Shown here piece after piece: positions 26,363 to 46,795 of a stretch of 64,000 bases of DNA. The notes under the pieces were generated by a model that was not told the origin of the DNA, did not search any database, and worked only from the letters and a program-made list of their open reading frames with translations. The stretch is from assembly GCA_038245725.1 (NCBI GenBank), contig JBBRSD010000001.1, positions 224,508 through 288,507 of the forward strand, read 5' to 3'. Both the position numbers and the translations under genes were made by a program. Position 1 is the stretch's first letter. Each line of letters begins with the position of its first letter. The DNA comes from Coriobacteriia bacterium. Lineage in GTDB: Bacteria; Actinomycetota; Coriobacteriia; Anaerosomatales; JAAXUF01.

Positions 26363-26402
26363 GGTTGAAGTGCCGAACATCCGGATCGCAGGAGGACCAA
26401 CG

Positions 26403-29075
26403 ATGCTTGAGCCCATCAAGAAGCTCTTTGGAGATCGCGCAAGCGACGATGCGCTACGTCGATTCGTCTATGGCCACGATATGGGAGCGCTTCCGGACAC
26501 AATCGGCAGGTTCATCGACAACGTGCCCGGTTTGGTCGTGCAGCCGGTGTCGGAAGATGAGGTCATCGCGCTTGTGAACTTCGCACGATCGACAGGGACA
26601 CCGATCGTGCCCCGCGGGGCCGCCACCGCTGGCTTCGGCGGGAGTGTACCGGCCAAGAGCGGCATTGTTGCGGATTTCGTTCGAATGAACGGCATCGTTG
26701 GCGTCGACCCCACGAGCTTCTCGGTGACCGTCGAACCGGGCGTTGTGTGGGCCGATCTCGAGAAGGCGCTTGATGCGCACGGTCGTAGGCTTCCGGTCTA
26801 CCCGACGAGTGCGCTGTCGGCCACGGTTGGCGGGTGGGTCGCGCAGGGCGGCGCCGGTATCGGGAGCCGCGGAAAAGGCGATTTGCTCGAAAACATCGTG
26901 TCCGTGCGCGCGGTGCTGGGCAGCGGTGACGTCAAGGAGTTCTCGGGGGAGGACCTTCACCTCGTCTACGCGATGGAAGGGATCACCGGCGTCATCACTA
27001 GTGTCACGTTGGCCACGCTGCCGAGCGCCGAGATAGTCGCCTGGCTCTACGCTTTCCCCTCGGCGATCACTGCGCAGGCGTTCGCGGCCGCAACTGGCGA
27101 CGTGAGCATCTGGCACCTGAACGTCCAACCGCCGCACTTCGTCGCCCTCAAGAACCGCGCGACGGGTGGGAGTCTGCCTGAGGAGTGGCTCGCGTTGGTT
27201 GCGTTTCCCGCGTCAGACTCGACGGATGCGGCGGTCGAGCACTTGGCAGCCGCAAACAACGGCCGGAGGTTGTCGGCAAGCGATGGTGCTCACGAGTGGG
27301 GGGAGCGCTTCTACCCCCTGCGCGGCAAGAAGTTCGGTCCGTCGATCATCGCCACCGATGTGGTGATTCCCGCCGATAGGCTCGCCGAGTTCTCGGCCAA
27401 GATCGCGGCCAAGTTCGGTGACGAACTCATCTTCGAGGCCACCGCGGTCGGCATGCGCGAGTACGCGATCATCGGATTCATGCTTGCCGACGAGCGCAAG
27501 CTCAGCTTCGTCATGCTGTTCGCCAACTCGCTTGTGGTCAACGAGATCGCAAAGAAGGTGGGCGGTCGCGCGTTCGCGAGCGGCATGTACCTGACGACCG
27601 AATCCGAGGCGATCTACGGCCGCGAGGTGCTCGAGCGAGTTGTCGTATTCAAGCGGGAGACGGACCCCGCCGGCATCCTGAATCCCGGTAAGGTGCTCCC
27701 AATCAAATACGACCCCAACTCCCCGGTCAAGCGCATCGCTCGCGCCGTCGGTTCGGCGCGGGGGGTGTCGGGAATCGGCGGCGCTCTGGGCCGCGTGATG
27801 ACCGGTGACGGTAAGGCGAAGAAGATTTCCGACCTGCCCAACGACATGGAGAACGGCGCCTTCGCCTGCGCAAGCTGCGGATTCTGTCGCGGCGTGTGCA
27901 CGGTCTTCGCGCCCGATCCGTGGGAAGACAATTCGCCGCGCGGCAAGTGGTACATGCTCAAGGAGTACGCGAAGGGCAATCTCGAGTTCGACCAGACCAT
28001 GGCCACCAAGATCAACCTGTGCACCACCTGCAAGCGCTGCGATACCGTCTGCGAAGTCTCGCTGCACATGGCGCACGAGTTCATGGGTGTGAAGCCCTAC
28101 CTGCTCGACGCCAAGGCGTTCGAGAACACGGGCCTGGCCGACGTGCGCACCAACGTGATGACGACCGGCAACTTCTGGGGCGCCCCCGCCGAGGGCACCG
28201 AGTGGCGCACCGACGACATGCGCTTCTCGGAGGACAGTGGGGTCGGCTACTGGCCTGGCTGCTGGTCGAGCGTCGTCACCAAGAACGCCCCGCAGAACGC
28301 CGTCCACCTCATGAACGCCGCGGGCATCGAGCCCGTCTATCTCGGCGACGAGCAGACCTGCTGCGGCCTCTACCACGCGCTCGGCGGATATGCCGACGAC
28401 TTCACGAAGCGGGTGAAGGATAACCTCGAGCTGATGAACCGCCGGGGCATCAAGACAATCATCACCTCGTGTCCCGGTTGTTTTGCGACGTTCACGGAGA
28501 ACTACAAGAGCGTGGCCGATGAACTCGGCATCCTGTGTGACATCGAGTTCAAGCACGTGGTGGTCTATCTCAGCGAGCTCGTTGAGCAGGGGAAGCTCGT
28601 TTTCCCCGCCGGCGATCCGATCAGCGTCACCTACCACGACTCGTGCCACCTGGGTCGCTGGTTCGGCAAGTACGAAGAGCCACGACGCGTTCTCGCGGCC
28701 ATGCCGAATCTGAATCTGCTCGAGATGGATCACAGCCGCGAAGAGGCGTTGTGTTGCGGCCTTGTGGGCGCGTTCTACCACCTGCCAACGGTTCAGCACT
28801 CGGCCGTCACGCGTGTGACCGAGGCCGAGAAGACGGGTGCGCAATACCTTGTCACCAACTGCGCCGGCTGTGCCTCACAGTTCAACGCCGCGACTAACGC
28901 GATGGGCACCACAATCAAGCAGAAGGATCTGACGGATCTTGCTGCCGAGGCTCTGGGGTACGAGGTGTACGACCCGACGGAGGCGATCGCTGGTGCCATG
29001 CAGGGTGCCGTGCAGATGCTCTCGGGATCGGTGACCGCACCGCGCAAGTGCGACATGTGCGGTGCCTGCGAATAG
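26403..29075 (+). CDS. fusion of FAD-linked oxidase (GlcD-like) and Fe-S/CCG-domain (GlcF-like) oxidoreductase
   Basis: ATG 26403 follows RBS caggagga. FAD_binding_4 region (PRGAATAGFGGSVP), two 4Fe-4S motifs (CASCGFCRGVC, CTTCKRCDTVC) and two CCG-type Cys-rich repeats (CCGL ... CPGC, CCGL ... CAGC). Confidence 0.85.
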   Translation: MLEPIKKLFGDRASDDALRRFVYGHDMGALPDTIGRFIDNVPGLVVQPVSEDEVIALVNFARSTGTPIVPRGAATAGFGGSVPAKSGIVADFVRMNGIVGVDPTSFSVTVEPGVVWADLEKALDAHGRRLPVYPTSALSATVGGWVAQGGAGIGSRGKGDLLENIVSVRAVLGSGDVKEFSGEDLHLVYAMEGITGVITSVTLATLPSAEIVAWLYAFPSAITAQAFAAATGDVSIWHLNVQPPHFVALKNRATGGSLPEEWLALVAFPASDSTDAAVEHLAAANNGRRLSASDGAHEWGERFYPLRGKKFGPSIIATDVVIPADRLAEFSAKIAAKFGDELIFEATAVGMREYAIIGFMLADERKLSFVMLFANSLVVNEIAKKVGGRAFASGMYLTTESEAIYGREVLERVVVFKRETDPAGILNPGKVLPIKYDPNSPVKRIARAVGSARGVSGIGGALGRVMTGDGKAKKISDLPNDMENGAFACASCGFCRGVCTVFAPDPWEDNSPRGKWYMLKEYAKGNLEFDQTMATKINLCTTCKRCDTVCEVSLHMAHEFMGVKPYLLDAKAFENTGLADVRTNVMTTGNFWGAPAEGTEWRTDDMRFSEDSGVGYWPGCWSSVVTKNAPQNAVHLMNAAGIEPVYLGDEQTCCGLYHALGGYADDFTKRVKDNLELMNRRGIKTIITSCPGCFATFTENYKSVADELGILCDIEFKHVVVYLSELVEQGKLVFPAGDPISVTYHDSCHLGRWFGKYEEPRRVLAAMPNLNLLEMDHSREEALCCGLVGAFYHLPTVQHSAVTRVTEAEKTGAQYLVTNCAGCASQFNAATNAMGTTIKQKDLTDLAAEALGYEVYDPTEAIAGAMQGAVQMLSGSVTAPRKCDMCGACE

Positions 29076-29128: not shown

Positions 29129-29262
29129 TCCTCATTCTGCGCCATAGCGTGGTGCGATCGCGGTGTTCTCAGCTCAGCGGCGTGTGCGGTTGATGGTATT
29201 CTGGCCAGGCGACTCGTGTCTGCGCGCTGTCGAACTTCGTCGTGCGAGGGAGGTGACCCCGA

Positions 29263-30303
29263 ATGGCCGAGCAGGTACGCCTCACACAGCTCTCCAGCAA
29301 GGCTGGTTGAGCGGCGAAATGGGGTCCGGCGGACCTCAAGGCCGTTCTCGACCATATCGCGCCCGGTGAATCCGACGCGCTCCTCCTCGGCTTCGAGACG
29401 AACGACGACGCGGCGGTCTACCAGCTCACGCCTGACATCGCGACGCTGCTGACCGTCGACTTCTTCACGCCCATCGTCGACGACCCGTACGACTTCGGCC
29501 GCATCGCCGCGGCCAACTCGCTCTCCGACATCTACGCGATGGGGGGTCGTCCGCTCACCGCGATGAACCTGCTCGCGTTCCCGTGCTCGCTCGGTCCCGA
29601 CATCGTGGGCGAGGTGGTCCGCGGAGGCGCCGAGAAGGTCGCCGAGGCAGGCGCGGTCACCGTGGGTGGCCACACCATCGACGACAAGGAGCCGAAGTTC
29701 GGGCTGTCGGTGATGGGCGTCGTGCATCCGGATCGTGTGATCCGCAACCGTGGCGCTCAGGCCGGCGACTCGATCGTGCTCACGAAGCCGATCGGCACCG
29801 GAATCATCGGCACCGCGCTGCGCGCCGGCCACGAGACCGAGGAGACCGCGCGCGACGTCATCGAGTCGATGGCGGCGCTCAACCGGCTCGCAGCCGAGGC
29901 GATGGTGGAGGTGGGTGTGCGCGCGGCGACCGACGTCACCGGCTTCGGGCTGCTGGGGCACATGCACGAGATGGCGGAGGCCAGCGGCGTTGCCGCGCGA
30001 ATCATCGCTGTCGAGGTACCGGTCTTCGACCGCGTCTTCGAGTACGCCGAGCAAGGTGTCGTGCCCGGCCGGACGGCTGACGTGATCGAATGGGTCAGCG
30101 ACTTCGTCACGTGGAGCTGGAAGATCGATGCCGAGAAGTGGTTGCCGGTGCTGTGCGACCCCCAGACAAGCGGGGGGCTGCTCATCGCGGTGGCGCCGGA
30201 GCGAGCGTTGCAGCTCGTGGAAACGCTCGAGTCGCATTGCCAGCTTGCGGCTGTGATCGGCCAGTTCGAGGTGGGGGACGCAGGGGCTGTGCGGGTGGGG
30301 TAG
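29263..30303 (+). CDS. selD: selenide, water dikinase (selenophosphate synthetase), selenocysteine-containing form
   Basis: ATG 29263 follows RBS gagggaggtga. Reads MAEQVRLTQLSSKAG-UGA(29308-29310)-AAKWGPADL and continues in frame into track ORF 29539..30303 (GGHTIDD, PurM-like fold). The UGA sits where E. coli SelD has its N-terminal Gly-rich loop cysteines. Confidence 0.9.
29320..29338 (+). other. candidate bacterial SECIS hairpin for the selD UGA
   Basis: An 8-bp stem tggggtcc / ggacctca (one G-T wobble) with a G-rich apical loop ggc. It starts 9 nt after the UGA. Confidence 0.45.
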
Positions 30304-30381
30304 GCGGGCGGCGGCCGTACCGGGATTGCGCCGAGATTTCACCGCACCGGCTTCTTTGCAACTCCCTAGGATAAGAAGGAG

Positions 30382-30726
30382 ATGGAGAGCAAGATGGCTA
30401 TTTGGCAAACAGCCGCATCCTCCGCGACTATTATTGGAATCTTCGTCCAACTCATGTGGGTGGGGCGCTGGGCGCGGCAGTGGGTCGAGCGCGGCGGCAA
30501 GGGGAGAGTCGTTCGTTATTTTCGAGACAATGTCGTAATGGCGTTGCCTATGGCCATCGGATTGATTGTGCTGGATGCGGCGATCGCGGAAGGCGGCTTG
30601 ACGTCGGCCGCCGTCCTTTCTTCCGTAGCGAATGCGGTGCTTTTGTCATCGTTTGCCAATCTGGTGTTGTACGCGCCGTACTTCATTTGGGTCGCTCGGC
30701 GGCGCAACTCGCGGGACCAAGCTTGA
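30382..30726 (+). CDS. small hypothetical membrane protein
   Basis: 114 aa with 3 predicted TM helices. It lies in an AT-richer segment and has RBS aaggag 5-6 nt upstream. Confidence 0.4.
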   Translation: MESKMAIWQTAASSATIIGIFVQLMWVGRWARQWVERGGKGRVVRYFRDNVVMALPMAIGLIVLDAAIAEGGLTSAAVLSSVANAVLLSSFANLVLYAPYFIWVARRRNSRDQA

Positions 30727-30765
30727 TACCACCGGGCAATCCGCTGAACCCGCTTTGTCTAGTGA

Positions 30766-31665
30766 GTGGAGGCAGACATGGACGGTGTCGACTCATCCGA
30801 CGGACTCGATGTGTGTGCGGCGAGCGACAGTACGCGTGAGGTATCTCTACTTGCTGGAGTGAGGACAACGGCGAGCACGTCAGGCCGCCGGTTGCTGGGC
30901 ATTCCGCTCGTTGGCCAGTTCGGTGTGAGACGCCTTGCGCCAGCGACGGTGGTTCTCGCCCTCGTTGGTGCTGCTCTGTGCGGCTGCGCCCCAAATCATG
31001 TGCCGGTGGCAGGACCCGAGGCAGTAGCGAGCCTGCTTCCGCCGTTGCCGACGCAACCCTCACCACGCACTATGTCAGCTATGGCCCGGACCGCGTTCTC
31101 TGAAGTCTCGCCTGCTCGCGCAAGAAGTGAGTCTGTGCCTTTGAGTTGGGGGACTCCCATTGCGGTGTACTCGCGGATACGGCGAACGACCGAGAGCTCG
31201 GGCGGCGCGGGGGTACCAGTCCTCGATCCGACCACCTGCAGGTTCCTCGTGTCGCTTGACACGAGCAAAGGCCCTGCGGGTGAGTTCTACATGTCGTCGC
31301 GCGCACCGTATCGCGCACTGGTCTCTACGGGACCGGAACATGTCCGATATGATCGCCAGCAAAAAACGGCCAGACTTGCGTCTGAAGCTCTTGCAGCATC
31401 GGGGAGAGTGGTCGCCTTCGAAGGTGTGTATGACGGGGTGTATGGCGAAGATCGCTTGGGCAACGCCGTGGTTGTGTTCTCAGTCGTCAGGTCGACTGGG
31501 ACTTTACCGAATCCTGGAGATTCCGTGAGACCGGCGCCTCCGGCCGCAATCGAGAACAGGGTGTATTCCGGGACTGATGCGCGACAGATGGTGCTGCTCC
31601 TGCCTGGCGGTGACAGTGGCCCGCCTTCGTGGACACCTGACCCTTGGGGATTCCAGTCCCGATAG
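30766..31665 (+). CDS. hypothetical lipoprotein
   Basis: Lipobox-like LVGAALCGC about 70 codons into the ORF; a GTG at 30925 is a plausible true start. No recognisable domain. Confidence 0.45.
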   Translation: MEADMDGVDSSDGLDVCAASDSTREVSLLAGVRTTASTSGRRLLGIPLVGQFGVRRLAPATVVLALVGAALCGCAPNHVPVAGPEAVASLLPPLPTQPSPRTMSAMARTAFSEVSPARARSESVPLSWGTPIAVYSRIRRTTESSGGAGVPVLDPTTCRFLVSLDTSKGPAGEFYMSSRAPYRALVSTGPEHVRYDRQQKTARLASEALAASGRVVAFEGVYDGVYGEDRLGNAVVVFSVVRSTGTLPNPGDSVRPAPPAAIENRVYSGTDARQMVLLLPGGDSGPPSWTPDPWGFQSR

Positions 31666-31685
31666 GGCGTATCCACATGCCGTGA

Positions 31686-31914
31686 CCACACCCGCTCGAG
31701 CCGCTTGAGTTTCGCTCCGAGGCGGTCCGCCTGGCCCGCTTCGGCGAGATCTCGATCCCGCAGATCGCAAGAGACCTCGGAATCTCAGACTAGACGCTTC
31801 GCAACCGGGTCGGCTGGACCCGACATCGACGAGGGACGCGCCCAAGGCTTGACCAGCACCTATCGCGATGAGCTGCGGCGCTTTCGCAAGGAAGTCAGAG
31901 TGTACGCGCTATAA
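31686..31914 (+). pseudogene. IS3-family transposase OrfA remnant (in-frame stop, frameshift, truncated)
   Basis: Frame 3 reads EFRSEAVRLARFGEISIPQIARDLGISD*TLRNRV (the HTH of IS3 OrfA). After a frameshift the track ORF 31705..31914 reads PDIDEGRAQGLTSTYRDELRRFRKEVRV (the leucine-zipper region). No OrfB follows. Confidence 0.6.
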
Positions 31915-31965
31915 TCCCTCCTGAACGCTGCCATCTGCTTTCGCTATCCGAGGGGGAGTCTCGAC

Positions 31966-32304
31966 ATGTCGAAGCGCGTCTTGATCGTCAGCGATACGAT
32001 CGGCGAGGACACGAGTGGACTCGGCGCCATCCTCATGAAGAACTTCCTGTACTCGGTTGCGCGCGATGGCAGCACCCCGAAGGCGATCATGCTCATGAAC
32101 GGCGGCGTTCGCCTCGCGTGTGAGGGCTCGACCTCCCTCGACGACCTGCGAATCCTCGCGGAGAACGGTGTGCCCGTGAAGGTGTGCGGCACCTGCCTCG
32201 ACTTCCTCGGCTTGATGGACCAGCTCGAGGTGGGCGAGGTCGGCACGATGTCCGATGGAGTCGCGGCGATGCTTGGCGACGATGCGGTGCTGACGGTCGG
32301 GTAG
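31966..32304 (+). CDS. YedF-like selenium-metabolism protein (DsrE-like domain only)
   Basis: 112 aa. VLIVSDTIGEDTSGLGAILMKNFLYS ... MLMNGGVRLACEGS ... VKVCGTCLDFLGL matches my memory of the C-terminal domain of YedF (TIGR03527). A TAA 18 codons upstream rules out a TusA-like N-terminal extension. Confidence 0.7.
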   Translation: MSKRVLIVSDTIGEDTSGLGAILMKNFLYSVARDGSTPKAIMLMNGGVRLACEGSTSLDDLRILAENGVPVKVCGTCLDFLGLMDQLEVGEVGTMSDGVAAMLGDDAVLTVG

Positions 32305-32340
32305 CGCCGCACCCTCAGCGCTGCCGCCCGCGTGAGCGCG

Positions 32341-32739
32341 TCAGCCGAGGATCGCGCGAACCGCGTCCACGAGCGCGGACGCCAGGTCCAGCGCTTCGGC
32401 GACCTCCTCGGCGGGTGGCTCTGTCATGTCGCCGGGGTCGCGGAACTCCCAGGCGTATTCGGATAGCGAGCTGACGGCCGCGGCGGCTACCGCCAGCGCT
32501 GGCTCGGCTGCGGCAACCGCGCGCCCTAGCTCGCCGAGGTCGTGGGTCTTGCGAAACGGCCGGTCGCGCAGCGCGAGTACGCCCTTCAGCGACTTCTCGC
32601 ACGCCTGCTGGCAGTGGAACGCGGCATCGCCCAGAAGCGGCGGCTCAAATCCCAGGTCGGCGCGAGCCGCTCTCAGATCGAGGTCGGCCTTCGCGAGCCA
32701 CGCCCGCGCGTCTTCGAGCGCAACCGGATCAGGCCGCAT
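32341..32739 (-). CDS. HEPN domain protein (toxin-like partner of the MNT)
   Basis: 132 aa. AAFHCQQACEKSLKGVLA and the helical HEPN pattern. It overlaps the upstream MNT gene by 11 nt. Confidence 0.8.
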   Translation of the reverse strand: MRPDPVALEDARAWLAKADLDLRAARADLGFEPPLLGDAAFHCQQACEKSLKGVLALRDRPFRKTHDLGELGRAVAAAEPALAVAAAAVSSLSEYAWEFRDPGDMTEPPAEEVAEALDLASALVDAVRAILG

Positions 32740-33202
32740 ACACGAGCACGCCCTCCCGAAGCACGGTCCCCGGCAGCGAAGCCTTGAGGTGCGTCCGCGC
32801 GTCGAAGTAGCTTTCGGTGCGCACGATCACGTCGACCGCGGCGCCCAAGTCCGCGACCGCCGCGTGTCCTGCGCCTCCACGTCGCAGTCGCGGCGGGGTG
32901 TCGTCTGCGACCACCACGAGCAGATCGTAGTCGCTGTCCGGGCCGGCATCACCGCGTGCGGCGGAGCCGAAGAGGTAGATGCGGTCGGCTGAGTACGTCT
33001 CGGCGAGGCGTCTGGCGATCTCGTCGAGAAGCGGGGAGAGCGAGGTGGCGAGGTCTGGGCGCGCGATGCGGTAGTTGCGGCCGTCTCGGCGTGCGGGCAG
33101 CGCGGCGCTCTCGATGCGCTTGAGGATGGCCTGCCGGCTGATGCCAAGCAGGAACGCCGCCTCGGCCGTTGTCACGAATCGCGTCTCCATGCTGACAACC
33201 AT
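32729..33202 (-). CDS. nucleotidyltransferase (MNT) domain protein with N-terminal excisionase-type HTH
   Basis: The N-terminal FVTTAEAAFLLGISRQAILKRIESAALPARRDGRNYRI (HTH_17-like) is followed by the minimal NTase motif LFGSAARGDAGPDSDYDLLVV. Confidence 0.8.
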   Translation of the reverse strand: MVVSMETRFVTTAEAAFLLGISRQAILKRIESAALPARRDGRNYRIARPDLATSLSPLLDEIARRLAETYSADRIYLFGSAARGDAGPDSDYDLLVVVADDTPPRLRRGGAGHAAVADLGAAVDVIVRTESYFDARTHLKASLPGTVLREGVLVYAA

Positions 33203-33244
33203 ACGCTCTCGGTTGTCAGAAGCGCAATGTAGACGACGACGCGC

Positions 33245-33835
33245 TCAGCGCGAGATTGACGGCCCGCCGCCTTCGCACGTGCGCACGAACTTCGGGTCCG
33301 CGGCCTGCTCCGGATGCGGGTTGTGCGTCACGTAGCGCAGCGTGGGCTCGCCGTCTTCGAGGTAGACGCCGTCGAGCACGAGACCGCACTTGTCGGCGAC
33401 CGCTCGCGAGGCCGCGTTCTCCGGCAGGATCGCCGAGTAGACCTGTGGGAACCCCACCTCGTCGAAGCCGTACTTGAGCGCAGCCTTGCCCGCCTCGGTC
33501 GCCAGCCCGCGGCCCCACAGCTGCGGCAGGATCGTCCAACCTAGTTCGACATCGGGCGCGAGCGTGCAGCCGAAGCCGCAGAACCCCACGATGCCGAGCG
33601 GGTCGCCCTCGACAGGTTCGCGCAGCTCGAGTGCCCAGCGCGACCAGCCGCGCTCTCGCTGGTTCTCGGTCTGGCGCGCGATGAAGCTGTCGATGTCGTC
33701 GGCCGGAAACGGTGCGCCGCGGTTGAGCCAGTGGATGATCTCGGGCTCGTGTGCGATGAGTGCGAACGCCGCGCGGTCCTTGCTCGTCCACGCGCGCAGG
33801 TTGAGGCGCTTGGTCTGGATGACGATCGGGCCCAT
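33245..33835 (-). CDS. GNAT family N-acetyltransferase (RimJ/RimL-like)
   Basis: RLNLRAWTSKDRAAFALI at the N-terminus and WGRGLATEA at the acetyl-CoA site. Start preferred at ATG 33835. Confidence 0.8.
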   Translation of the reverse strand: MGPIVIQTKRLNLRAWTSKDRAAFALIAHEPEIIHWLNRGAPFPADDIDSFIARQTENQRERGWSRWALELREPVEGDPLGIVGFCGFGCTLAPDVELGWTILPQLWGRGLATEAGKAALKYGFDEVGFPQVYSAILPENAASRAVADKCGLVLDGVYLEDGEPTLRYVTHNPHPEQAADPKFVRTCEGGGPSISR

Positions 33836-34037
33836 GCGTGCGTCCTTCCTGCTCGTTGGCACAGTCTAATCCGCATGAAAGGGGCACGCCGCGGGTTTCG
33901 GGCGGTCGGCACTCAAGGGTCGGCGGGCGGTGGAATCCGGCACGCGGGCGGGGGCGGCGGGCGTGGCGCGAGCGCCCGCTAGGCAGCCGCAGCGCACCGT
34001 GCGCGTCGGTCGAGCGCCGCTGCGGTATCATCGACCT

Positions 34038-35441
34038 ATGGACGTAAACGCGCTGCTGAGGACGCTCCCCAACACCGACGAGGTGCTCGCGCACCCCGCC
34101 CTCGCCGAGACGGTCGCCGCCGTCCCGCGCGCGCTCGTGCTCGACGCCGTCCGCAGTGCGATCGGAGACGCGCGCTCCCGCCTGCTCGGCGGCGAGGAGT
34201 TCGAGCCGTCCGCGGCCGCGATCGCGCAGGACGCGGTCGCCCGCGCCACGCTCGCCGCGCGCCCCAGCTTGCGCCGCGTCATCAACGCGACCGGCATCAT
34301 CGTGCACACCAATCTCGGTCGCAGCGTGCTCTCGGAGCGCGCCGCAGCCGCCGTCGCCGAAGTCGCAAGCGGCTACTCGACGCTCGAGGCCGACGTCGAG
34401 AGCGGCGAGCGCGGCAGTCGGCATGTGCACGTCGAGTCGCTGCTCTGTCGCCTGACCGGCGCCGAGGCCGCGATGGCCGTCAACAACAACGCCGCAGCCG
34501 TCATGCTCGGCATCGCGGGGCTCGCACGCGGGCGCGAAGCGATCGTGAGCCGCGGACAGCTCGTCGAGATCGGCGGCAGCTTCCGTATCCCCGACATCAT
34601 GGCCGAATCCGGCGCGACGATGGTCGAGGTCGGCACCACCAACAAGACGCACCTCGCAGACTACGAGAACGCTCTGACAGCGAACACAGGCCTGCTCCTC
34701 AAGGTGCACTCGAGCAACTACCGCGTGGTCGGCTTCACCGAGGAGGTCTCGCTCTCAGAGCTCGTCGACCTCGGCGCGCTGCACGGCGTGCCGGTCATGG
34801 AGGATCAGGGCTCCGGCGTGCTCATCGATCTGACGCGCTTCGGCCTGCCAGACGAGCCCACCGTGGGCGCGAGCGTGGCCGCGGGTGCCGCCGTCGTGAC
34901 CGCGTCGGGAGACAAGCTACTCGGCGGACCGCAGGCGGGCCTGCTCATGGGCCGAAGCGACGTGATCGACCGCCTCAAGAAGCACCCGATGGCGCGTGCG
35001 CTGCGCCTCGACAAGATGACGCTCGCTGCGCTCGAGGCGACGCTCTCGGCATACCTCGACGAGGAGCGCGCCCTGCGCGAGATTCCCACGCTGCGGATGC
35101 TCACCGCACCGCAGTCCGAGGTCCGAGCGCGTGCCGAGGCGCTCGCCGTGCGCATTCGCGAGGCTCTCGGCGAAGCCAACGACGTCGCTGTTGCCGACGA
35201 CGTCGCGCGCGCCGGCGGTGGGTCGCTGCCGCTCGCGGACATCGCGAGCGCTGTGGTCGCGATCGCGCAGCGCGAGATGCCGGTCGCCAAGCTCGAAGGG
35301 CTCCTGCGCTGTGGCGGCGAGCCCGCGATCGTCGCGCGCATCAAAGACGACCGTCTGCTCATCGACCCACGCACGCTGCTTTCTCCCGCCGAGGAGGACG
35401 CGGTCGTCGTGCGGCTTCGCGAAGTGCTCGGACGCGCATAG
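34038..35441 (+). CDS. selA: L-seryl-tRNA(Sec) selenium transferase
   Basis: MDVNALLRTLPNTDEVL at the N-terminus, VINATGIIVHTNLGRS, and the PLP lysine region SGDKLLGGPQAG. ATG 34038 lies within track ORF 33930..35441. Confidence 0.9.
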   Translation: MDVNALLRTLPNTDEVLAHPALAETVAAVPRALVLDAVRSAIGDARSRLLGGEEFEPSAAAIAQDAVARATLAARPSLRRVINATGIIVHTNLGRSVLSERAAAAVAEVASGYSTLEADVESGERGSRHVHVESLLCRLTGAEAAMAVNNNAAAVMLGIAGLARGREAIVSRGQLVEIGGSFRIPDIMAESGATMVEVGTTNKTHLADYENALTANTGLLLKVHSSNYRVVGFTEEVSLSELVDLGALHGVPVMEDQGSGVLIDLTRFGLPDEPTVGASVAAGAAVVTASGDKLLGGPQAGLLMGRSDVIDRLKKHPMARALRLDKMTLAALEATLSAYLDEERALREIPTLRMLTAPQSEVRARAEALAVRIREALGEANDVAVADDVARAGGGSLPLADIASAVVAIAQREMPVAKLEGLLRCGGEPAIVARIKDDRLLIDPRTLLSPAEEDAVVVRLREVLGRA

Positions 35442-35469
35442 TAACCGGCTCTCGGCAGCTCGCGCGAAC

Positions 35470-36396
35470 CTACCGCGCCATCTCCCGCAGCCGCGCGATG
35501 CGCACCGCCGGGTCCGGATGCGTGTCGAAGAGCCCCGTGAGCCAGCCACGCGTCTTGCCTTCCGGGTCGTGCAGCGGGCTCGCGATCCACAGATGGGCCG
35601 TGGCCTTGTTCATTCGCCGCATCGACTGCGGGTCGGCCGTGATCTTCTCGAGCGCGTCGGCGAGTTCGTTCGGGTTGCGCGTGAGCAGCGCTCCACTCGC
35701 GTCTGCGAGCAGTTCTCGGCGGCGCGATACCGCGAGCTGGATGAGCATCGCGAACAGGGGAGACAGCAGCGCGAGCACGATTCCCACGAGCATGAGGATC
35801 GCGCCCACCTGCCCGCTGTCGCCGCTGCCGGAATCGCGCCGCCGACCTCCGCCGAACCAGAACGGGTAGCGCAGGAAGAAGTCCGACAGCAGCACGACGA
35901 ACCCCACCAGCACCACGACGACGCTCGAGAGCAGGATGTCGTAGTTCCCGATGTGGGACAGCTCGTGCGACAGCACGCCTTCGAGCTCCGGCTTGTCGAG
36001 CTTAGCCAGCAGCCCGGTCGTCACCGCGACCGCCGCATGTTGCGGGTTGCGGCCGGTGGCGAAGGCGTTGGGCGACGGGTCGTCGATGATGTAAACGCGC
36101 GGCATCGGCAGGCCGCTTGCGATGCACAGGTTCTCGACGAGGCGGTACAGCTCGGGCGCCTGAGCTTTGTCGATCTGGTGGGCGCCGGATATGGCGAGCG
36201 CGACCTTGTCACTCCACCAGTACGACGAGAACGACTGCACGATCGCGACGATGATCGCGACCGGCAGGAGCCACGTGAGCCTGAGCGCCACGCCGAAGAC
36301 GTAGCCGAGAGCTATCACTGCGGCGACGAATACGGTCATGACCCCCACGGTCCGCCATTTGTTGGACGCTATGTTGTCGTAGACGGTAGCTGCCAT
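35470..36396 (-). CDS. htpX: zinc metalloprotease HtpX (M48)
   Basis: 308 aa, 4 TM helices, HELSHIGNYD zinc motif and a C-terminal FDTHP. Confidence 0.9.
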   Translation of the reverse strand: MAATVYDNIASNKWRTVGVMTVFVAAVIALGYVFGVALRLTWLLPVAIIVAIVQSFSSYWWSDKVALAISGAHQIDKAQAPELYRLVENLCIASGLPMPRVYIIDDPSPNAFATGRNPQHAAVAVTTGLLAKLDKPELEGVLSHELSHIGNYDILLSSVVVVLVGFVVLLSDFFLRYPFWFGGGRRRDSGSGDSGQVGAILMLVGIVLALLSPLFAMLIQLAVSRRRELLADASGALLTRNPNELADALEKITADPQSMRRMNKATAHLWIASPLHDPEGKTRGWLTGLFDTHPDPAVRIARLREMAR

Positions 36397-36399
36397 CGG

Positions 36400-36948
36400 T
36401 TAGAACTTGACCTCGACGTTGGCCCTCTCGGCGGGTGCTGCCTCGATGAACTCGAAGGCGGAGAATCCGAGCGAGCTGGCGATCAGGTTGGTGGGGAACA
36501 CCTGGATCGACGTGTTGAAGTCGCGAACGTTGGAGTTGTAGAAACGCTGCGCGGCCATGATCTTATCCTGCGTGTCGGTGATCTCGGCCTGCAGCGAGAG
36601 GAAGTTCTGGTTCGCCTTCAGATCGGGGTAGGCCTCGGCGACGGCGAAGAGGGACTTCAGCGTCTCGGTGAGCTGGTTGCTCGCCTGGATGCGCTCGCCG
36701 GTCGATCCGGTCAGCAGGCCCGCGCGCTCAGCGGCGACCTTCTCGAAGAGCTCGCGCTCGTGAGTGGCGTAGCCCTTCACCGTTTCGACGAGGTTGGGGA
36801 TGAGCTCGTATCGACGCTTGAGCTGGACGTCGATATCACTCGCCGCCTCGGCGACGCGGTTCTTGCGGGTAATGAGCCCGTTGTAAACGGCGATCAACGC
36901 GGCCACGAGCACCACGACGATCGCGATCACTATCCAGAGTCCCATCAT
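36400..36948 (-). CDS. lemA: LemA family protein
   Basis: N-terminal TM helix then YNGLITRKNRVAEAASDIDVQLKRRYELIPNLVETVKGYATHE. Start at the ATGATG at 36948 with RBS ggagga upstream. It lies 3 nt upstream of htpX. Confidence 0.9.
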   Translation of the reverse strand: MMGLWIVIAIVVVLVAALIAVYNGLITRKNRVAEAASDIDVQLKRRYELIPNLVETVKGYATHERELFEKVAAERAGLLTGSTGERIQASNQLTETLKSLFAVAEAYPDLKANQNFLSLQAEITDTQDKIMAAQRFYNSNVRDFNTSIQVFPTNLIASSLGFSAFEFIEAAPAERANVEVKF

Positions 36949-37096
36949 GGCGAATCCTCCCAATCGTGCATCGGATTTCGGCACGTCCATCATGCTGCAA
37001 CTGGCGCGCCGCTGCGAGTGGTATCACCGAATGGACACAGTCGAACAACCCCATGCTACGCTACCAGCGCCCCTCACCCCGTCTGATTGGTCGCGC

Positions 37097-39001
37097 ATGC
37101 CATCGCTGGTCCTCGGCACCGCCGGGCACATCGATCACGGCAAGTCGGCGCTCGTCAAAGCGCTGACCGGCACCGATCCGGACCGCCTGCCCGAGGAGAA
37201 GGAGCGCGGCGTCACGATCGAGCTGGGCTTCGCGCAGCTCATCCTTCCCAGCGGGCGCGCAATGGGCGTCGTCGACGTGCCCGGCCACGAGAAGTTCGTG
37301 CGCCAGATGGTCGCTGGCGCGACCGGCATCGACGTGGTGCTGCTCGTGGTCGCTGCCGACGACGGCGTGATGCCGCAGACGCGCGAGCATCTCGCGATCA
37401 TCGACCTGCTGGGGATCGAACGCGGCGTGGTTGCGATCACGAAGTCCGACCTCGCCGACGAAGAGTGGCTCGAGATAGTGCGCGCCGATGTCGAGGAGCT
37501 GCTCGCCGGCACCAGCATCGAGAGCGCACCGATCGTCGCCGTGAGTGCCAAGACCGGCGCCAGCCTGCCGGAGCTGCTGGCTACGATTGACGAGGTCGCA
37601 AAGACCGCCGAGGCGCGCCACGCGGACCTGCCGATGCGCCTGCCTGTCGACCGCGTGTTCACAATTGCAGGCGCGGGCACCGTCGTGACCGGCACGATGT
37701 GGTCGGGCACCGTGCGCCGAGACGACACGGTCGAGATCTACCCGGAAGGCGAGCGTGCTCGTGTGCGCAGCGTGCAGGTGCACAGCGAGCCCGTGGCCGA
37801 GGCGCATGCGGGCCAGCGCGTGGCGATCAACCTTGCTGGTGTCGAGCGCGACGAGATCGCCCGCGGCGATATTCTCGCGCTGCCTGGTTCGCTCAGCGTG
37901 ACCGACCGCTTCGACGCCCGCTTCACCTACCTCGGCACGCCCGGCGACGAGAAGCCCTTCGAGTCTGGCGCTCGCGTGCACGTCAACCACGGAACGCGCG
38001 AAGTGCTCGGCCGCGTGCTGCTCATGGACGTCGAGCGCCTGCTCCCCGGCCAGTCCGCGCTCGCGCAGGTTCGCCTCGAAGAGCCGCTCGCGCCGCGCTA
38101 CGACGACCGCTTCATCGTCCGCAGCTACTCGCCGGTCTACACGGTCGGCGGCGGCATTGTGCTTGACACCCTCCCGCCGCGCCGCACGCAACTGACGCCC
38201 CGCGAGCGCGACCTGCTCGGCGCGCTCGTCGCGCACGACTTCGCCGGCGCCTCGACCGGGCTGCTTACCTCGCGCGGCGTCCCGATGACGTCGGCCGAGG
38301 TCGCCGCCGCGCTTGGCGTGCAGCGCTCCATCGTCGCCGACGAGCTCAACCGCGCGAAGTTGGAGCGCCTGAAGGTCGCCTCCGACACCTACTTCGTGAC
38401 GCCGAGCGCGCTCGAGGCGCTCATCGCGGCCATCGAGCGCCACCTGCTCGCTTTCCACGCCGAGAACCCCTCGGCGACCGGCATCTCGACGAGCGCGCTT
38501 CGCGACCTCGTCGAGCGCCGCATCGAGCCGCGCGTCTTCGACGCGCTGCTCGGCGTCGCCTCGCAGCGGGGGATCGCCGCGGTCGACGCCGGGCTGGCCC
38601 GCCACCCGAAGGCGGCGGTGAGCGCGCTTGCCGCGGAAGCGTCAGCGGAGGCCGCGCTTGTGGCGCTCATCGAGTCCCAGCGGCTTGAGCCCGCCGGTCC
38701 GGCCGCACTCGCGTCAGCTGCCGGCATCGACGTGGGGCTCGCGCGCAAGGCGCTCGGCAAGCTCGCGACCGAGGGCCGCGTGGTGCGCGCCAACGCAGAC
38801 ATGCACTTCTCGGCGGCGGCGATCGCGCTGGCCAAAGAGCGCGTGGCCGGCTACCTGGCGCAGCATCCGGACGGAGCGAGCGCTGCGGAACTGCGCGACG
38901 CGCTCGGCGTGAGCCGGAAGTTCGCGATACCGCTGCTTGAGTATTTCGACGCTCAGGGAGTCACCAGACGCGTCGGCGACGTCCGAGTGCTGCGGGGCTG
39001 A
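37097..39001 (+). CDS. selB: selenocysteine-specific translation elongation factor
   Basis: [25 protein letters not shown] (G1), DVPGHEKF (G3), the SKSD-type G4 (ITKSD), and C-terminal winged-helix repeats. Start at ATG 37097 within track ORF 36947..39001. Confidence 0.9.
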
Positions 39002-40442
39002 CCGCGGGCGCTGACTTCGCCGTCACGCTGCGATCGCCCGGTGCGGTGATCCGGGGCAATTCGATCGTGAAGCGAGCTCCCGTGCCGCTGACGTTCTCTG
39101 CGCGGATCGTGCCGCTGTGCAGATCGACCAGCCGCCGCGCGATGGCGAGTCCGAGACCGGCACCGCCCGAGTCCTGCGGCCGCGGACCCTGCGCGCGGTA
39201 GAAGCGGTCGAAGATGCGCTCGAGTTCGGGCTCGGGGATGCCGGGGCCGTCGTCGGCGATCATGAGGCGTACATGCAGGTCATCGGCGTTGGCCGACAAG
39301 GTGATGTGTCCCCCCTCCGAAGTGTGCGAGAAGGCGTTCTTAAGCACGTTGAGGAGTGCCTGGTCGAGCAGGTCCGGATCGCCCGAGACCCACAGCCCGG
39401 CCACGGCATCGACCGTTATCGTTCGCGGCCCGAGCATGTTGACCCGCGCGGCGCCTTCCTCGAGCATCGTGCGTACCTCGAGCGGCTGGAACGGACGCGC
39501 GGCTCCCTCGAGACGGGCGAGCGAGAGCAGTTCGTCGAGGAGCCGGGTCATGCGAGCCGACTCGGCGTCGATCATCTCGAGGCTCTCGAGCGCGTCGACG
39601 CCGCCGATCCGCCCGCTGTGCAGGAGTTCGACGTTGCCGCGGACGATCGACACCGGAGTGCGAAGCTCGTGACTCGCGTTGGCGACGAACTTTCGCTGCT
39701 CGGCGTAGGCGTGTTCGAGCCGGCCGAGCATCGCGTTCAACGCGCTCGCGAGCGCTCCGAGCTCGTCGGGAGGTCCCTTGTAGTCCAACCGCATCCCAGG
39801 TGACGCAACCGAGATGGCCGAAGCGTCAGCCGCCATGAGGTGCAGCGGTCGCAGCGCCTCGCGCGCAGCCCAGATCGACAGCGCCGAGGCCAGGACGACG
39901 ACGAGGATGCCTGCGGCACCGAGCGCGCTTACAACACCGACCGCGATGTTGCGCGCGGTGTCTGCCGAGAGCGCGACCTGGAAGGTGCCGATACGCGAGC
40001 CGTCCGCGGCCTCCACCGGTACCGAGAGCGTCCGGTAGGTCGTGCCATCGAGCTTCGCATAAGCGAACGCTGGAGCGGTTGGAGGCGACGTCAGCACGTG
40101 GTTGTCCGCCGCAGAGTAGATTGCGATGTCGGAGTTCGAGATCTTGCGGCCTCCGTCGAAGACAAGTAGAAGGATCGGGCTCGCGCCGGACTGGCCACCG
40201 GTGCGGCCCTGCAGATAGGTGCGCGTGGCGGCTGCCAGGGCCTCGCTCGCGGGAGCGCTACGAACGGCCGCTGCGTACGCGGATGCCTCGCGCACGAGCG
40301 TTCGGTCGGTCTCGCTGCCGAGATTGCGGAGCGTGATGACGTAGGCCAAAGCGCACAGAAGAAGGATGGCGGCCGCGGTGGCCAAGGACATGGTGAGCGC
40401 GACGCGCCCGCTTGCCGACAGACGGCGCCTACGCACGGACAC
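38961..40442 (-). CDS. sensor histidine kinase (two TM, extracytoplasmic sensor, HAMP, HisKA, HATPase_c)
   Basis: H-box FVANASHELRTP, N box LLNVLKNAFSHT and G boxes DDGPGI / GGAGLGLAI. The start is ambiguous (GTG 40442 or 40436, overlapping the RR stop). The 3' end overlaps the selB 3' end by 41 nt. Confidence 0.85.
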   Translation of the reverse strand: MSVRRRRLSASGRVALTMSLATAAAILLLCALAYVITLRNLGSETDRTLVREASAYAAAVRSAPASEALAAATRTYLQGRTGGQSGASPILLLVFDGGRKISNSDIAIYSAADNHVLTSPPTAPAFAYAKLDGTTYRTLSVPVEAADGSRIGTFQVALSADTARNIAVGVVSALGAAGILVVVLASALSIWAAREALRPLHLMAADASAISVASPGMRLDYKGPPDELGALASALNAMLGRLEHAYAEQRKFVANASHELRTPVSIVRGNVELLHSGRIGGVDALESLEMIDAESARMTRLLDELLSLARLEGAARPFQPLEVRTMLEEGAARVNMLGPRTITVDAVAGLWVSGDPDLLDQALLNVLKNAFSHTSEGGHITLSANADDLHVRLMIADDGPGIPEPELERIFDRFYRAQGPRPQDSGGAGLGLAIARRLVDLHSGTIRAENVSGTGARFTIELPRITAPGDRSVTAKSAPAVSPAALGRRRRVW

Positions 40443-41097
40443 GGTACCCGGCGCCCCGAACGGTCTCGACAACGGATGACTCGCCATCGCGGTCGAGTTT
40501 TCGACGAAGGTAGCCTACGTACACATCGACGACATTGCTGCCGGCGTCGAATCCGATGCCCCAGACGGAGTCAAGAATCTGCTGTCGAGAAAGCACCTGG
40601 CCCTCGTGTCGCATGAGGTATTCGAGAAGTGCGAACTCGCGGCTGGGCAGGTCGACGTGGATGTCGCCGCCACGGGTCGCGACACGCGTCTTGGTGTCGA
40701 GCGTCATGTCGCCTACGGTCAGCACCCGGGAGGACGCGGAGCCCTGGCGCCCCGCGGCGCGGACCCGCGCGGCGAGTTCGGCGAAAGCAAACGGCTTCAC
40801 GAGATAGTCATCGGCCCCCGCGTCGAGCACGTCGACTTTGTCGTCGATCTCGCCCAGAGCACTGACAACGATCACGGGTAGCTCGGGCTTCGAGATACGG
40901 ATGGAGCGCAGCACCTCGGTGCCGCGCGCGTCCGGAAGGATGAGATCGAGCAATACGAGGTCGAAGTCGTATGTGGCTTCGATGGCGATCGCATCGGCTG
41001 CATTGGCTGCGCGCTCGACCGAGTGACCCTCGGCCCGCAACCCCTTGACCATGAATGATGCGATGCTGTCCTCGTCTTCAACGACCAGGATCCGCAC
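40429..41097 (-). CDS. OmpR-family response regulator
   Basis: VRILVVEDEDSIA receiver domain (phospho-acceptor in LVLLDLILPD) and a winged-helix C-terminus (EFALLEYLMRH ... GAGYRV). GTG 41097 follows RBS ggaggag. Confidence 0.9.
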   Translation of the reverse strand: MRILVVEDEDSIASFMVKGLRAEGHSVERAANAADAIAIEATYDFDLVLLDLILPDARGTEVLRSIRISKPELPVIVVSALGEIDDKVDVLDAGADDYLVKPFAFAELAARVRAAGRQGSASSRVLTVGDMTLDTKTRVATRGGDIHVDLPSREFALLEYLMRHEGQVLSRQQILDSVWGIGFDAGSNVVDVYVGYLRRKLDRDGESSVVETVRGAGYRVRA

Positions 41098-41098
41098 G

Positions 41099-41524
41099 CT
41101 AGTCTCCTCCGCTCGGGTTGCCTCGCCCCCCACTGCTGTGCTCCGACGACGCACCTTCCCCGTTGTCGAGCACCGGCGGTTTCACGATTTCGACCGAGTT
41201 GCCGTCCGAAGACGATGAACTCGCGCCGCTCTTGACCGACGTTGGAGTGCTTGGCTTCTTGGTGTTCGAGTAGTTCTTGCCCGAATTCGGCTTCGACTTA
41301 GAGGGTTTCGGAGAGACGATGCTGCTCGGAGCTGAGTGAGACGTCGCCGAGAGAGGGGCACTGACGGCGGACGAAACGGTCGATGTGACCGGGCGAGACG
41401 TGATCACGATCGGCACGTCGCCTGCGGTGGGACCATGGCCGGTGGAAGCAACAGCGACCCCGACCGCGGCGAGGCCGATAATTACGCCTATGACGATTAT
41501 CACCTTCACCGTGTGTCCCAACAT
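41099..41524 (-). CDS. small membrane-anchored Ser/Thr/Pro-rich hypothetical protein
   Basis: 141 aa. One N-terminal TM helix (VKVIIVIGVIIGLAAVGVAVA) followed by a low-complexity S/T/P/K-rich tail. Its stop lies 1 nt before the RR start codon. Confidence 0.45.
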   Translation of the reverse strand: MLGHTVKVIIVIGVIIGLAAVGVAVASTGHGPTAGDVPIVITSRPVTSTVSSAVSAPLSATSHSAPSSIVSPKPSKSKPNSGKNYSNTKKPSTPTSVKSGASSSSSDGNSVEIVKPPVLDNGEGASSEHSSGGRGNPSGGD

Positions 41525-41583
41525 TGCATCGCCAGTTTCTCTACTCTGAGTTGATTATCACCTATGCGGACGGTGTTGCGGGC

Positions 41584-42960
41584 CTAGCCACCATTGGACG
41601 AGTCGTGGCATGCGATGCACGTGTGCGTCGTGAAGCCGTTGGGATGGCAGTTCGTGCATGCGAAGCTCTTTGAGGAGTGCTGTCCGCCGCGGATGGGAGC
41701 GTGTGAGAAGGCCCAGCTCACGCCGGTGTTGTGATGGCAGTTCGAGCACTGGCCGGCGGCCATTCCGGCCGGTCGTGCGTGGCAGCTTGTGCAGTTCGCT
41801 CGGCTGCCCGGATGTGTGAACGCCCAGCTGACACCAGGCTTGCGATGACAGGTCGAGCACTGGCCGGCGGCCATTCCGGCCGGTCGTGCGTGGCAGCTAG
41901 CGCAGTTCGCTCCGATGCCAGGGTGCGAGAACGCCCAGCTAACGCCAGGCTTGCGATGACAGGTCGAACAGGCACCTGCGGCCATGCCTGCGGGGCGCGG
42001 GTGGCAGCTAGCGCAGTTCGCTCCGATGCCAGGGTGCGAGAACGCCCACGACTTCCCGGGCTGCTTGTGGCACGTCGCGCAGTCGCCGCGGATGCTCGTG
42101 TGCTTCGCGGGACGGACGTGGCATGTCGAGCAGTCTGAGCCCGATGTGTGCGAGTGCATCCATGTCTTTGCCACCTGCTCGTGACAGCTCGTGCACTGCG
42201 TGGACGCGGGGTGAACCGCCGGACGGTTGTGGCATGAGGCGCAGTCAACGCCTGAGAGAGGGTGCGTGAAGACGAACTTCGGACCGGTCCGGTGACACGT
42301 CGTACACTCGCCACGCGGCTTGTGCTGCGGCGTGTGGCACGTCGAGCAAGCTGTCTTCGACATCGTGTGACAGCGAGAGCACACGACCGTGATATGTCCT
42401 GCCAGATCGGCGGCTCCGGCGTCGATGACGGCGAGGCTCGTGCCCGCCGACGCGGCGGCCGAGATGGCGGTGGGGTTGAGGATTCCCGCCTGCTGAAGCG
42501 TTGAGGCGGGCACCGCGTGGCCGGCCGTCTGGTGGCAGCTCGCGCACGTGCCCCGGGTCGCGTGCGTCTTGTGGCTGAAGCCAGGTACGAGAACGGTCAC
42601 GGTCGTATGACAGCGGATGCATCGCGAATCGGGGACCTCAGTCGGAGTCATGCGCGGGAAGGACGTGTCGCTCCGGAAGTGAGCGACGACCTCCTTGAGG
42701 GCCGAGAACTTGTGAGTCAGCCGAGCGGTCTGACCTGGTTCTACATGGCATTCGAGACACGAAGCGTCGCGATGGGGACCTTGGGACCATGCCGAGAGGT
42801 ACGGACTCATCTCATGGCAGGTGGAGCCGCAGAACGACGGTTTGTCGGTCGCGTGGGCGATGCCAAGGAACGCGGCAGCACCAACGCCGATAGCCACCAG
42901 GCCGACAAGCAGCCAGGTGCCTACCTTGCGAGATATTCTCCACGTCACTGGACTTGTCAT
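41584..42960 (-). CDS. NapC/NirT (NrfH/CymA)-type membrane-anchored multihaem cytochrome c, 19 haem motifs
   Basis: N-terminal TM anchor, then FCGSTCHEM ... CLECH (the NapC/NirT head). In total 18 CXXCH plus one CX3CH. The C-terminal half is made of paired-CXXCH repeats (SWAFSHPG ... CASCH ... CSTCH). Confidence 0.85.
   Translation of the reverse strand: MTSPVTWRISRKVGTWLLVGLVAIGVGAAAFLGIAHATDKPSFCGSTCHEMSPYLSAWSQGPHRDASCLECHVEPGQTARLTHKFSALKEVVAHFRSDTSFPRMTPTEVPDSRCIRCHTTVTVLVPGFSHKTHATRGTCASCHQTAGHAVPASTLQQAGILNPTAISAAASAGTSLAVIDAGAADLAGHITVVCSRCHTMSKTACSTCHTPQHKPRGECTTCHRTGPKFVFTHPLSGVDCASCHNRPAVHPASTQCTSCHEQVAKTWMHSHTSGSDCSTCHVRPAKHTSIRGDCATCHKQPGKSWAFSHPGIGANCASCHPRPAGMAAGACSTCHRKPGVSWAFSHPGIGANCASCHARPAGMAAGQCSTCHRKPGVSWAFTHPGSRANCTSCHARPAGMAAGQCSNCHHNTGVSWAFSHAPIRGGQHSSKSFACTNCHPNGFTTHTCIACHDSSNGG
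41703..42075. repeat. about 3.4 tandem copies of a 111-bp (37-codon) unit inside the cytochrome gene
   Basis: The string cgagcact recurs at 41743 and 41854, and the diverged cgaaca at 41965, giving a period of 111. Long identical runs such as ggccggcggccattccggccggtcgtgcgtggcagct are shared between copies. Confidence 0.8.
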
Positions 42961-43195
42961 GCGCGCCGTCCCGTCGTCAGTTCACGCCGTTGGGATTATC
43001 TTCGTCTCCGCAGGTGAGGGCTGCATGAGGGGTGCGTGAGAACTTCCTCACGGTCAAACGCCGCCTCGTCGTCGCGCGTGGCGGGGATCCGGCGGTTTGA
43101 CACAGCATCGCACGCTCGAGAGAATGCCGAGGACATGGGGCAGGCGATTCTCGGCGGGCGTTTGCGCTCATCGTCGCCGGGCGAAGGGGCGAGAC

Positions 43196-45991: not shown

Positions 45992-46259
45992 CGACCGGAC
46001 CGGGATGGAGCACCCGCGGATGGCACCTCGTGGTGCGACCTGCGGCAACACGGTATCCTGTTGGTGGAGGCGGTTCTCGGCTGGTGCTGGGCTTGGTCTT
46101 CAAAACCACAGTGGGGCGTGAAGAGCGTCCCGGGTGTGTTCGATTCGCACACGCCTCCGCCACGTGCGCAAAACCGGCGTATCGCAGATGCAGACGCCGT
46201 TGCTTCAGTCATGCCAGGGGTTGTTGACGCGATCCCGCAGAGTTTGGAAGGGGAGCACG

Positions 46260-46748
46260 ATGCGTGTTCGGTTGATCGCGGTGGCCGTGCTGGCTGTCGT
46301 GGCTTCGGCAGCGCTTGGTGGCTGCGCGAGCGTGAAGAGCTCGCTGGACGCCAGGTTCACGCCCAAGCCCCAGCTCATCACGCAGGAGGCCACTGTTGCT
46401 GCCACCGGCGCATCGATTATCGGGAAGATCCCTCCCGGCTTTCCGCGCACGTTGCCCATGTGGCCGGGAGCGAGGGTCTACAGGACCAAGGTCACCAACA
46501 CTCGCAACGGCAAGCCGTCCTACATTCTGTCGACGTGGACGCGAGATCCCTTCGCCGACGTCCTCGCCGGTCTCGGCAAGGGCTTCCTCGATGGTGGCTG
46601 GAAGGTCAGGGGTACCGACGTCAGCATCGACAAACAAAAGGTCGTCATTCTCACGATCTCCGGATTGGGCAGCGAGGGCATCGTCACGGTGAGCCAGATC
46701 GCCTCGAGACCGGTGACCATCGACTACGTGGTGGGACCGAAGAAGTAG
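46260..46748 (+). CDS. hypothetical lipoprotein
   Basis: MRVRLIAVAVLAVVASAALGGCAS signal peptide with lipobox, and RBS ggaagggga upstream. No domain recognised. Confidence 0.55.
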   Translation: MRVRLIAVAVLAVVASAALGGCASVKSSLDARFTPKPQLITQEATVAATGASIIGKIPPGFPRTLPMWPGARVYRTKVTNTRNGKPSYILSTWTRDPFADVLAGLGKGFLDGGWKVRGTDVSIDKQKVVILTISGLGSEGIVTVSQIASRPVTIDYVVGPKK

Positions 46749-46795
46749 CGCCCACGGGTACAAACTGCGGTACCGCCCGAACCGAAAGGAACCGC

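Follow-up and report, generated by a model that had tools for sequence, protein, structure and literature searches.

The window, by which we mean the whole 64-kb stretch of DNA that was analysed, carries selA, selB, selC and selD, the last of these in a single copy. The coding frame of selD contains a UGA at its sixteenth codon, and the features that define the gene and its possible reading frames are as follows.

29249..29253, + strand: Shine-Dalgarno sequence GGAGG, read from the sequence, with a 9-nt spacer to the selD ATG
29263..30303, + strand: full-length selD (selenide, water dikinase), 346 codons, with an in-frame UGA as codon 16 and the stop codon TAG at 30301-30303
29308..29310, + strand: UGA codon 16 of selD, at the catalytic Cys/Sec position, very probably read as selenocysteine (Sec)
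29539..30303, + strand: truncated selD open reading frame of standard callers, taken from the ORF list, 254 aa, starting at Met-93

Translation of selD from the ATG at 29263-29265 gives MAEQVRLTQLSSKAG, then TGA (codon 16), then AAKWGPADLKAVL and so on, with no further stop until the TAG at 30301-30303. Since another in-frame TGA lies just upstream (29254-29256), the ATG at 29263 is the only possible start of the gene. An initial annotation of this DNA had described this ATG with a strong ribosome-binding site and a UGA at codon 16, and both are present at these positions. It had also placed the ATG in one frame with the reading frame that begins at Met-93, and translation shows this to be correct: the ATG at 29539 is codon 93 of selD, 276 nt downstream of the ATG at 29263. 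No in-frame ATG, GTG or TTG occurs between the UGA (29308-29310) and 29539. Standard ORF calling does cut selD short, as had been claimed; the first 92 codons are lost, and a public protein collection contains the exact 254-aa sequence, under an NCBI contig of 502,742 bp. Such a product would be without the catalytic loop, and its AIRS domain would be missing 45 residues at the start (residues 48-92). The 254-aa ORF is an artefact of taking the UGA as a stop.

We searched profiles with the full-length protein, in which the UGA was replaced by Cys. It scored 383.4 bits against TIGR00476 (cut-off 125), with residues 6-314 aligned to positions 1-310 of the 311 in the profile, and 340.3 bits against NF002098 (cut-off 299). 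The Pfam domains AIRS (residues 48-154, 96.6 bits) and AIRS_C (residues 166-345, 81.8 bits) were both recovered. Top matches among solved structures were E. coli SelD (3u0o; E = 2.6e-73, 250 bits) and Aquifex aeolicus SelD (2yye/2zod; E = 6.5e-69, 236 bits). The N-terminal phmmer alignment to 3u0o is gapless and sets residue 16 of our protein against Cys17 and Lys19 against Lys20, the established catalytic pair of E. coli SelD; opposite the G-U-A-A-K of the window SelD, the A. aeolicus chain has G-C-A-A-K. The UGA therefore falls in the catalytic Cys/Sec column, aligned to Cys17 of E. coli SelD, and not away from it. By profile, domains and glycine-rich loop, the window gene is a selenide, water dikinase SelD, with enzymatic activity predicted. 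Compared with the Cys-type E. coli protein (3u0o), Lys20 and the other fold-defining regions are conserved, whereas E. coli has Cys17 (the TGC/TGT type) where the window has UGA, and Cys19 where the window has Ala18.

The catalytic column in homologous loci

To compare the gene with its homologues, we used a scan of one genome per species, which yielded 80 loci, and read the codon in the catalytic column. One of the 80 loci did not match the codon-reading pattern. Among the 79 readable loci the catalytic codon was TGA in 30 and TGC or TGT in 49. All 11 closest relatives (62-80% identity), which come from independent metagenome-assembled genomes, carry TGA; they are labelled Actinomycetota, Actinomycetes and Coriobacteriia, and several bear the doubtful label 'Eubacteriales'. 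The other 19 TGA-type homologues are more distant and belong to Bacillota, Chloroflexota, Gemmatimonadota, Nitrospirota and others. The stretch VRLTQLSSKAG-U-AAKWGPxDL is conserved in 13 sequences, and upstream of the UGA the codons of these sequences differ synonymously. Because VRLTQLSSKAG is kept as protein under synonymous variation, the 11 codons before the TGA are translated in the same frame. This coding conservation upstream, together with the TGA/Cys pattern, rules out that the TGA is a sequencing error or that selD is a recent pseudogene. As judged from the aligned sequences, it is the comparative evidence, and not the hairpin alone, that puts the finding far beyond chance.

A mixture of the two codon types was also observed among the Bacillales, where the Bacillus-type loci L023, L045, L061 and L074 were set against the Bacillales and Paenibacillus loci found among L012-L080. 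Some of these SelD genes have TGA (the four named loci, with KAG-U-GCKIGP), while most have Cys (KGG-C-GCKIGP). The mix illustrates frequent switching between Sec and Cys at the catalytic column within a single order.

These comparisons bear on two other explanations of the TGA. The UGA could be a genuine stop, with selD either a pseudogene or expressed only as the 254-residue protein that starts at Met-93. Such a reading would agree with the result of standard ORF calling (29539-30303), with the presence of that product in a public collection, and with the normal use of TGA as a stop elsewhere in the window. However, 30 homologous loci share this TGA, in every case at the catalytic Cys column, and the 15 codons that precede it show conservation at the protein level, behind a strong Shine-Dalgarno sequence and an ATG. 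The Met-93 product would also be left without the catalytic loop and AIRS residues 48-92, and selA, selB and selC, whose function depends on an active SelD, are retained in the genome. We therefore regard a genuine stop as highly improbable. A second explanation is that sequencing or assembly has turned a TGC or TGT into this TGA, given that one base separates TGA from a Cys codon. The identical TGA, however, stands in 11 close relatives assembled independently of one another and in 19 genomes at a greater distance, and the conserved downstream hairpin (see below) goes with TGA and is shown less by Cys-type genes. This makes an error the least probable of the explanations that we considered, and a Sec codon in a functional selD remains our preferred reading.

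Selenocysteine genes and their neighbourhood

Three further genes of the Sec pathway lie downstream of selD.

33930..35441, + strand: selA, L-seryl-tRNA(Sec) selenium transferase; TIGR00474 586.3 bits (cut-off 267.9); Pfam SelA and Se-cys_synth_N
36947..39001, + strand: selB, Sec-specific elongation factor; TIGR00475 376.3 bits (cut-off 242.25); Pfam SelB-wing_2 and SelB-wing_3
46066..46162, + strand: selC, tRNA-Sec with anticodon UCA; found by ARAGORN (TCA) and by Rfam RF01852, 68.7 bits (gathering threshold 47)

The initial annotation had relied on selA and selB in the same window as support for recoding. Profile searches recovered both, and selC and selD accompany them; the tRNA-Sec gene, on which that proposal also depended, is present at 46066-46162. 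The TIGR00475 match to the selB ORF covers profile positions 2-580 of 581 and begins only at residue 55, and the true start of selB probably lies about 50 codons inside the ORF 36947-39001. SelB-wing_2 and SelB-wing_3 are the winged-helix domains that bind the SECIS.

With regard to the genetic code, TGA is the stop codon of 9 of the 23 confidently identified genes in the window, so it has not been reassigned genome-wide. The only tRNAs that ARAGORN found in the window were tRNA-Leu and tRNA-Sec. We also ran a crude scan of the 64 kb for other in-frame TGA codons between segments of high GC3, a scan of low power, since it missed selD itself. It returned three hits as candidates for other selenoprotein genes, none of them convincing, and all three look like ordinary gene ends or non-coding frames.

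It is conceivable that Cys or Trp, rather than Sec, is inserted at the UGA, by a near-cognate tRNA, a suppressor or an altered code. Many species have an active enzyme with Cys at this residue, as in the 49 Cys-type homologues, and the chemistry of decoding is invisible in DNA. Nonetheless, the nine genes that end in TGA argue against a change of code, and ARAGORN sees only tRNA-Leu and tRNA-Sec in the window. The presence of a dedicated Sec machinery and of a conserved hairpin at the position expected from the SECIS model also speaks against such read-through, as does the alternation of TGA with Cys codons only, which is the signature of a Sec/Cys pair (PMC1794560). We give read-through as Cys or Trp very little credence compared with Sec insertion.

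The four Sec genes are linked but spread over 17 kb (29263-46162), and do not form an selAB(C) operon. Downstream of selD, the order is two orphan ORFs, a yedF-like gene, a HEPN/MntA-like nucleotidyltransferase pair (32341-32739 and 32729-33202, - strand), an acetyltransferase gene (33245-33862, - strand), selA, htpX (35470-36396, - strand), a LemA/MamQ-like gene (36400-36993, - strand) and selB. Past selB lie a two-component system (38961-41154, - strand), a multihaem cytochrome gene (41584-42960, - strand), a large glycosyltransferase-like gene (43097-45991) and then tRNA-Sec. Neither of the two ORFs next to selD (30382-30726, 114 aa; 30766-31665, 299 aa) matches a Pfam or NCBIfam model. The G+C content of 30300-31900 is 0.585-0.635, against 0.66-0.73 in the flanks, and the AT skew is strongly negative at 30400-31000; this segment may represent inserted DNA that separates selD from the yedF-like gene.

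The yedF-like gene (31966-32304, + strand) lies 1.66 kb downstream of selD and encodes 112 aa with a CGTC (CGxC) motif. Its product scores 111.1 bits against TIGR03527 (cut-off 110) over profile positions 87-192 of 194. Only the DsrE-like C-terminal half of YedF, a selenium-metabolism protein, is represented; the TusA-like N-terminal half is missing, and a tblastn search of the window did not find it elsewhere.

Directly upstream of selD is a gene (26370-29075, + strand) for a 901-aa protein that joins an FAD-linked oxidase (GlcD-like, residues ~50-240) to a GlcF/GlpC/HdrD-like iron-sulfur CCG domain (residues ~500-860). The known selenoprotein families include the GlpC-type proteins; no in-frame UGA was seen in the gene at 26370-29075. 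The protein matches NF045663 ('dicluster-binding protein', diclust_near_Sec) weakly, at 50 bits against a cut-off of 530. At the other end of the Sec gene set, a 416-aa ORF (46061-47311, + strand) overlaps tRNA-Sec, and only its residues ~244-401 match nitroreductase models. The 5' end of this ORF is an artefact, and the real gene is probably a nitroreductase gene at ~46790-47311, directly downstream of tRNA-Sec.

The hairpin downstream of the UGA

The RNA that follows the UGA can fold into a stem-loop, which has an upper part and an extended form.

29320..29338, + strand: upper stem-loop of the putative bacterial SECIS, 8-bp stem, apical loop GGC at 29328-29330
29305..29353, + strand: extended stem-loop, in which a lower stem GUUGAG at 29306-29311 (holding the UGA) pairs with CUCGAC at 29347-29352

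The upper hairpin has the sequence UGGGGUCC-GGC-GGACCUCA, with eight pairs that include one G-U, and its folding energy alone is -11.0 kcal/mol. It begins 9 nt past the UGA, and its loop begins 17 nt past the UGA. The extended structure has a minimum free energy (MFE) of -29.3 kcal/mol (z = -3.78), and 0 of 200 shuffled sequences were as stable; the 60 nt from the selD UGA fold at -24.7 kcal/mol.

The published consensus model for bacterial SECIS elements, as quoted in a 2026 review (PMC13188914), places an apical loop of 3-9 nt on a stem of 4-16 bp, with G among the two opening nucleotides of the loop (usually G then G/U), 16-37 nt between the UGA and the loop, and an MFE of -7.5 kcal/mol or lower. 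The selD hairpin agrees with all four constraints. The 8-bp hairpin that the initial annotation had reported from 9 nt after the UGA is thus present and fits the published model. With the bSECIS model of Zhang and Gladyshev, whose prototype is the E. coli fdhF SECIS, the points of agreement are the place of the stem-loop right after the UGA, the 3-nt loop, the 8-bp stem, the GG start, the 17-nt spacing and an MFE far lower than -7.5 kcal/mol. The MFE fold of the window hairpin has no bulged U, and binding by SelB is putative. The hairpin has no sequence resemblance to E. coli SECIS elements, which is usual for bacterial SECIS elements (PMC13188914).

We estimated how often such a match arises in this window, which is 66% G+C, and found that 270 of its 1505 TGA trinucleotides (18%) pass the bacterial SECIS rules. 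Because of this high share, a match to the SECIS model alone is not evidence of a selenoprotein in this genome. At 11% of the 1505 TGAs the next 60 nt fold at least as stably as at selD, and an upper stem of at least 8 pairs occurs at only 1.6% of them. Taken alone, the selD hairpin is weak to moderate evidence for a SECIS.

Conservation across relatives adds to this picture. All 13 Sec-type sequences of the clade share an unchanged core, GGUCC-GGN-GGACC, and the core codons GGT, CCG and GAC (Gly, Pro and Asp) are each represented by a single codon in 13/13. Elsewhere in selD, of 74 columns whose amino acid is invariant and whose codons are four- or six-fold degenerate, 3% showed single-codon use. 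In the consensus fold of the 13 sequences, the six lower-stem pairs are kept in 10-13 of them. Covariation analysis of the same 13 Sec-type sequences, in which the core is invariant, gave no compensatory base changes in the hairpin or the lower stem. The conservation of the hairpin is partly protein-driven, since it overlaps the conserved codons of W-G-P-x-D-L. In four sequences the Trp codon (UGG) is replaced by Tyr (UAC), and in three of these four the Leu codon on the other side of the stem is CUG instead of CUC. These changes would allow an alternative GUA/UGC pairing, which is suggestive only.

The two codon types also differ in local folding. For the 80 sequences compared (the window and the 79 readable loci), the 45 nt from the catalytic codon were folded against shuffled sequences, and the mean z was -1.69 for the TGA type (n = 31) and -0.43 for the Cys type (n = 49). 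The difference gave p = 4e-6 in a Mann-Whitney test, a value that ignores kinship among the sequences and so overstates their independence.

An Rfam search of 29200-29450 (E <= 10) returned no SECIS family, and its best hits (E = 2.3-6) were unrelated (miRNA, viral CITE and others). We did not count this result against a SECIS because such elements in bacteria have little sequence in common (PMC13188914). The hairpin core GGTCCGGNGGACC was found nowhere in the 64-kb window besides the selD site, which it matches on both strands, the core being near-palindromic.

Decoding of the UGA and its meaning

Considering the catalytic column, the upstream coding conservation and the Sec genes together, it is very likely that the UGA at 29308-29310 encodes Sec in a functional selD. 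The hairpin at 29320-29338 would then be the element bound by SelB, and we take the mechanism over from the well-studied SelB/SECIS system of E. coli. Translation would begin at the ATG at 29263, and the ribosome at the UGA (29308-29310) would meet a stem-loop that begins in the next codons, with its GGC loop 17 nt after the UGA. SelB carrying GTP and Sec-tRNA(Sec) would bind the GGC loop through its C-terminal winged-helix domains and deliver Sec, and translation would go on to the TAG at 30301. The predicted product is a selenide, water dikinase of 346 residues with Sec16 in its mobile N-terminal glycine-rich loop (G-U-A-A-K).

A SelD of the Sec type depends on its own product, since SelA needs the selenophosphate made by SelD in order to make Sec-tRNA(Sec). 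Such positive feedback is a known feature of Sec-type SelD. It has been proposed that a self-reinforcing Sec-type SelD helps to maintain the Sec trait (PMC1794560). One could go further and suppose that SelD is the only selenoprotein of this uncultured actinobacterial lineage, or one of very few, and that the invariant stem-loop with the UGA serves as a selenium-sensing autoregulatory switch, but we consider this improbable. If SelD were the only selenoprotein or nearly so, the main use of selA, selB and selC would be the synthesis of the very enzyme that supplies them. If the stem-loop were a switch, scarce selenium would lead to a 15-residue peptide and available selenium to full-length SelD.

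Sec-type SelD is already known and forms a long-established family, of which the present gene is an ordinary member from an uncultured high-G+C lineage. Haemophilus influenzae SelD and native A. aeolicus SelD, for example, contain Sec. The window gene shares with this family the enzyme family (TIGR00476), the domain architecture and a UGA in the N-terminal G-x-G-U/C-x-x-K loop; it also has, within its coding sequence, a stem-loop that follows the UGA immediately, and is accompanied by selA, selB and selC, as other members are. It differs in its origin, an Actinomycetota/Coriobacteriia-like lineage according to the titles of the nearest loci, and in the primary sequence of the hairpin. No bacterial selenoproteins are more widespread than SelD and FdhA (PMC1794560, PMC9312934), and Zhang et al. 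list Sec-type SelD in Actinobacteria, e.g., Rubrobacter xylanophilus (PMC1794560).

The finding is therefore an annotation correction and not a discovery; only the gene model needs correcting, and the understanding of selenoprotein synthesis is unchanged by this selD gene. The correction matters for how the genome is read. Gene calling that treats UGA as a stop leaves a 254-residue fragment without the active site, and annotation of that fragment could score the SelD of this genome as defective or odd, and so misjudge its selenium metabolism. With selD corrected to 29263-30303 and Sec at codon 16, the gene joins selA, selB, selC and the YedF-like gene to give a complete Sec-decoding trait.
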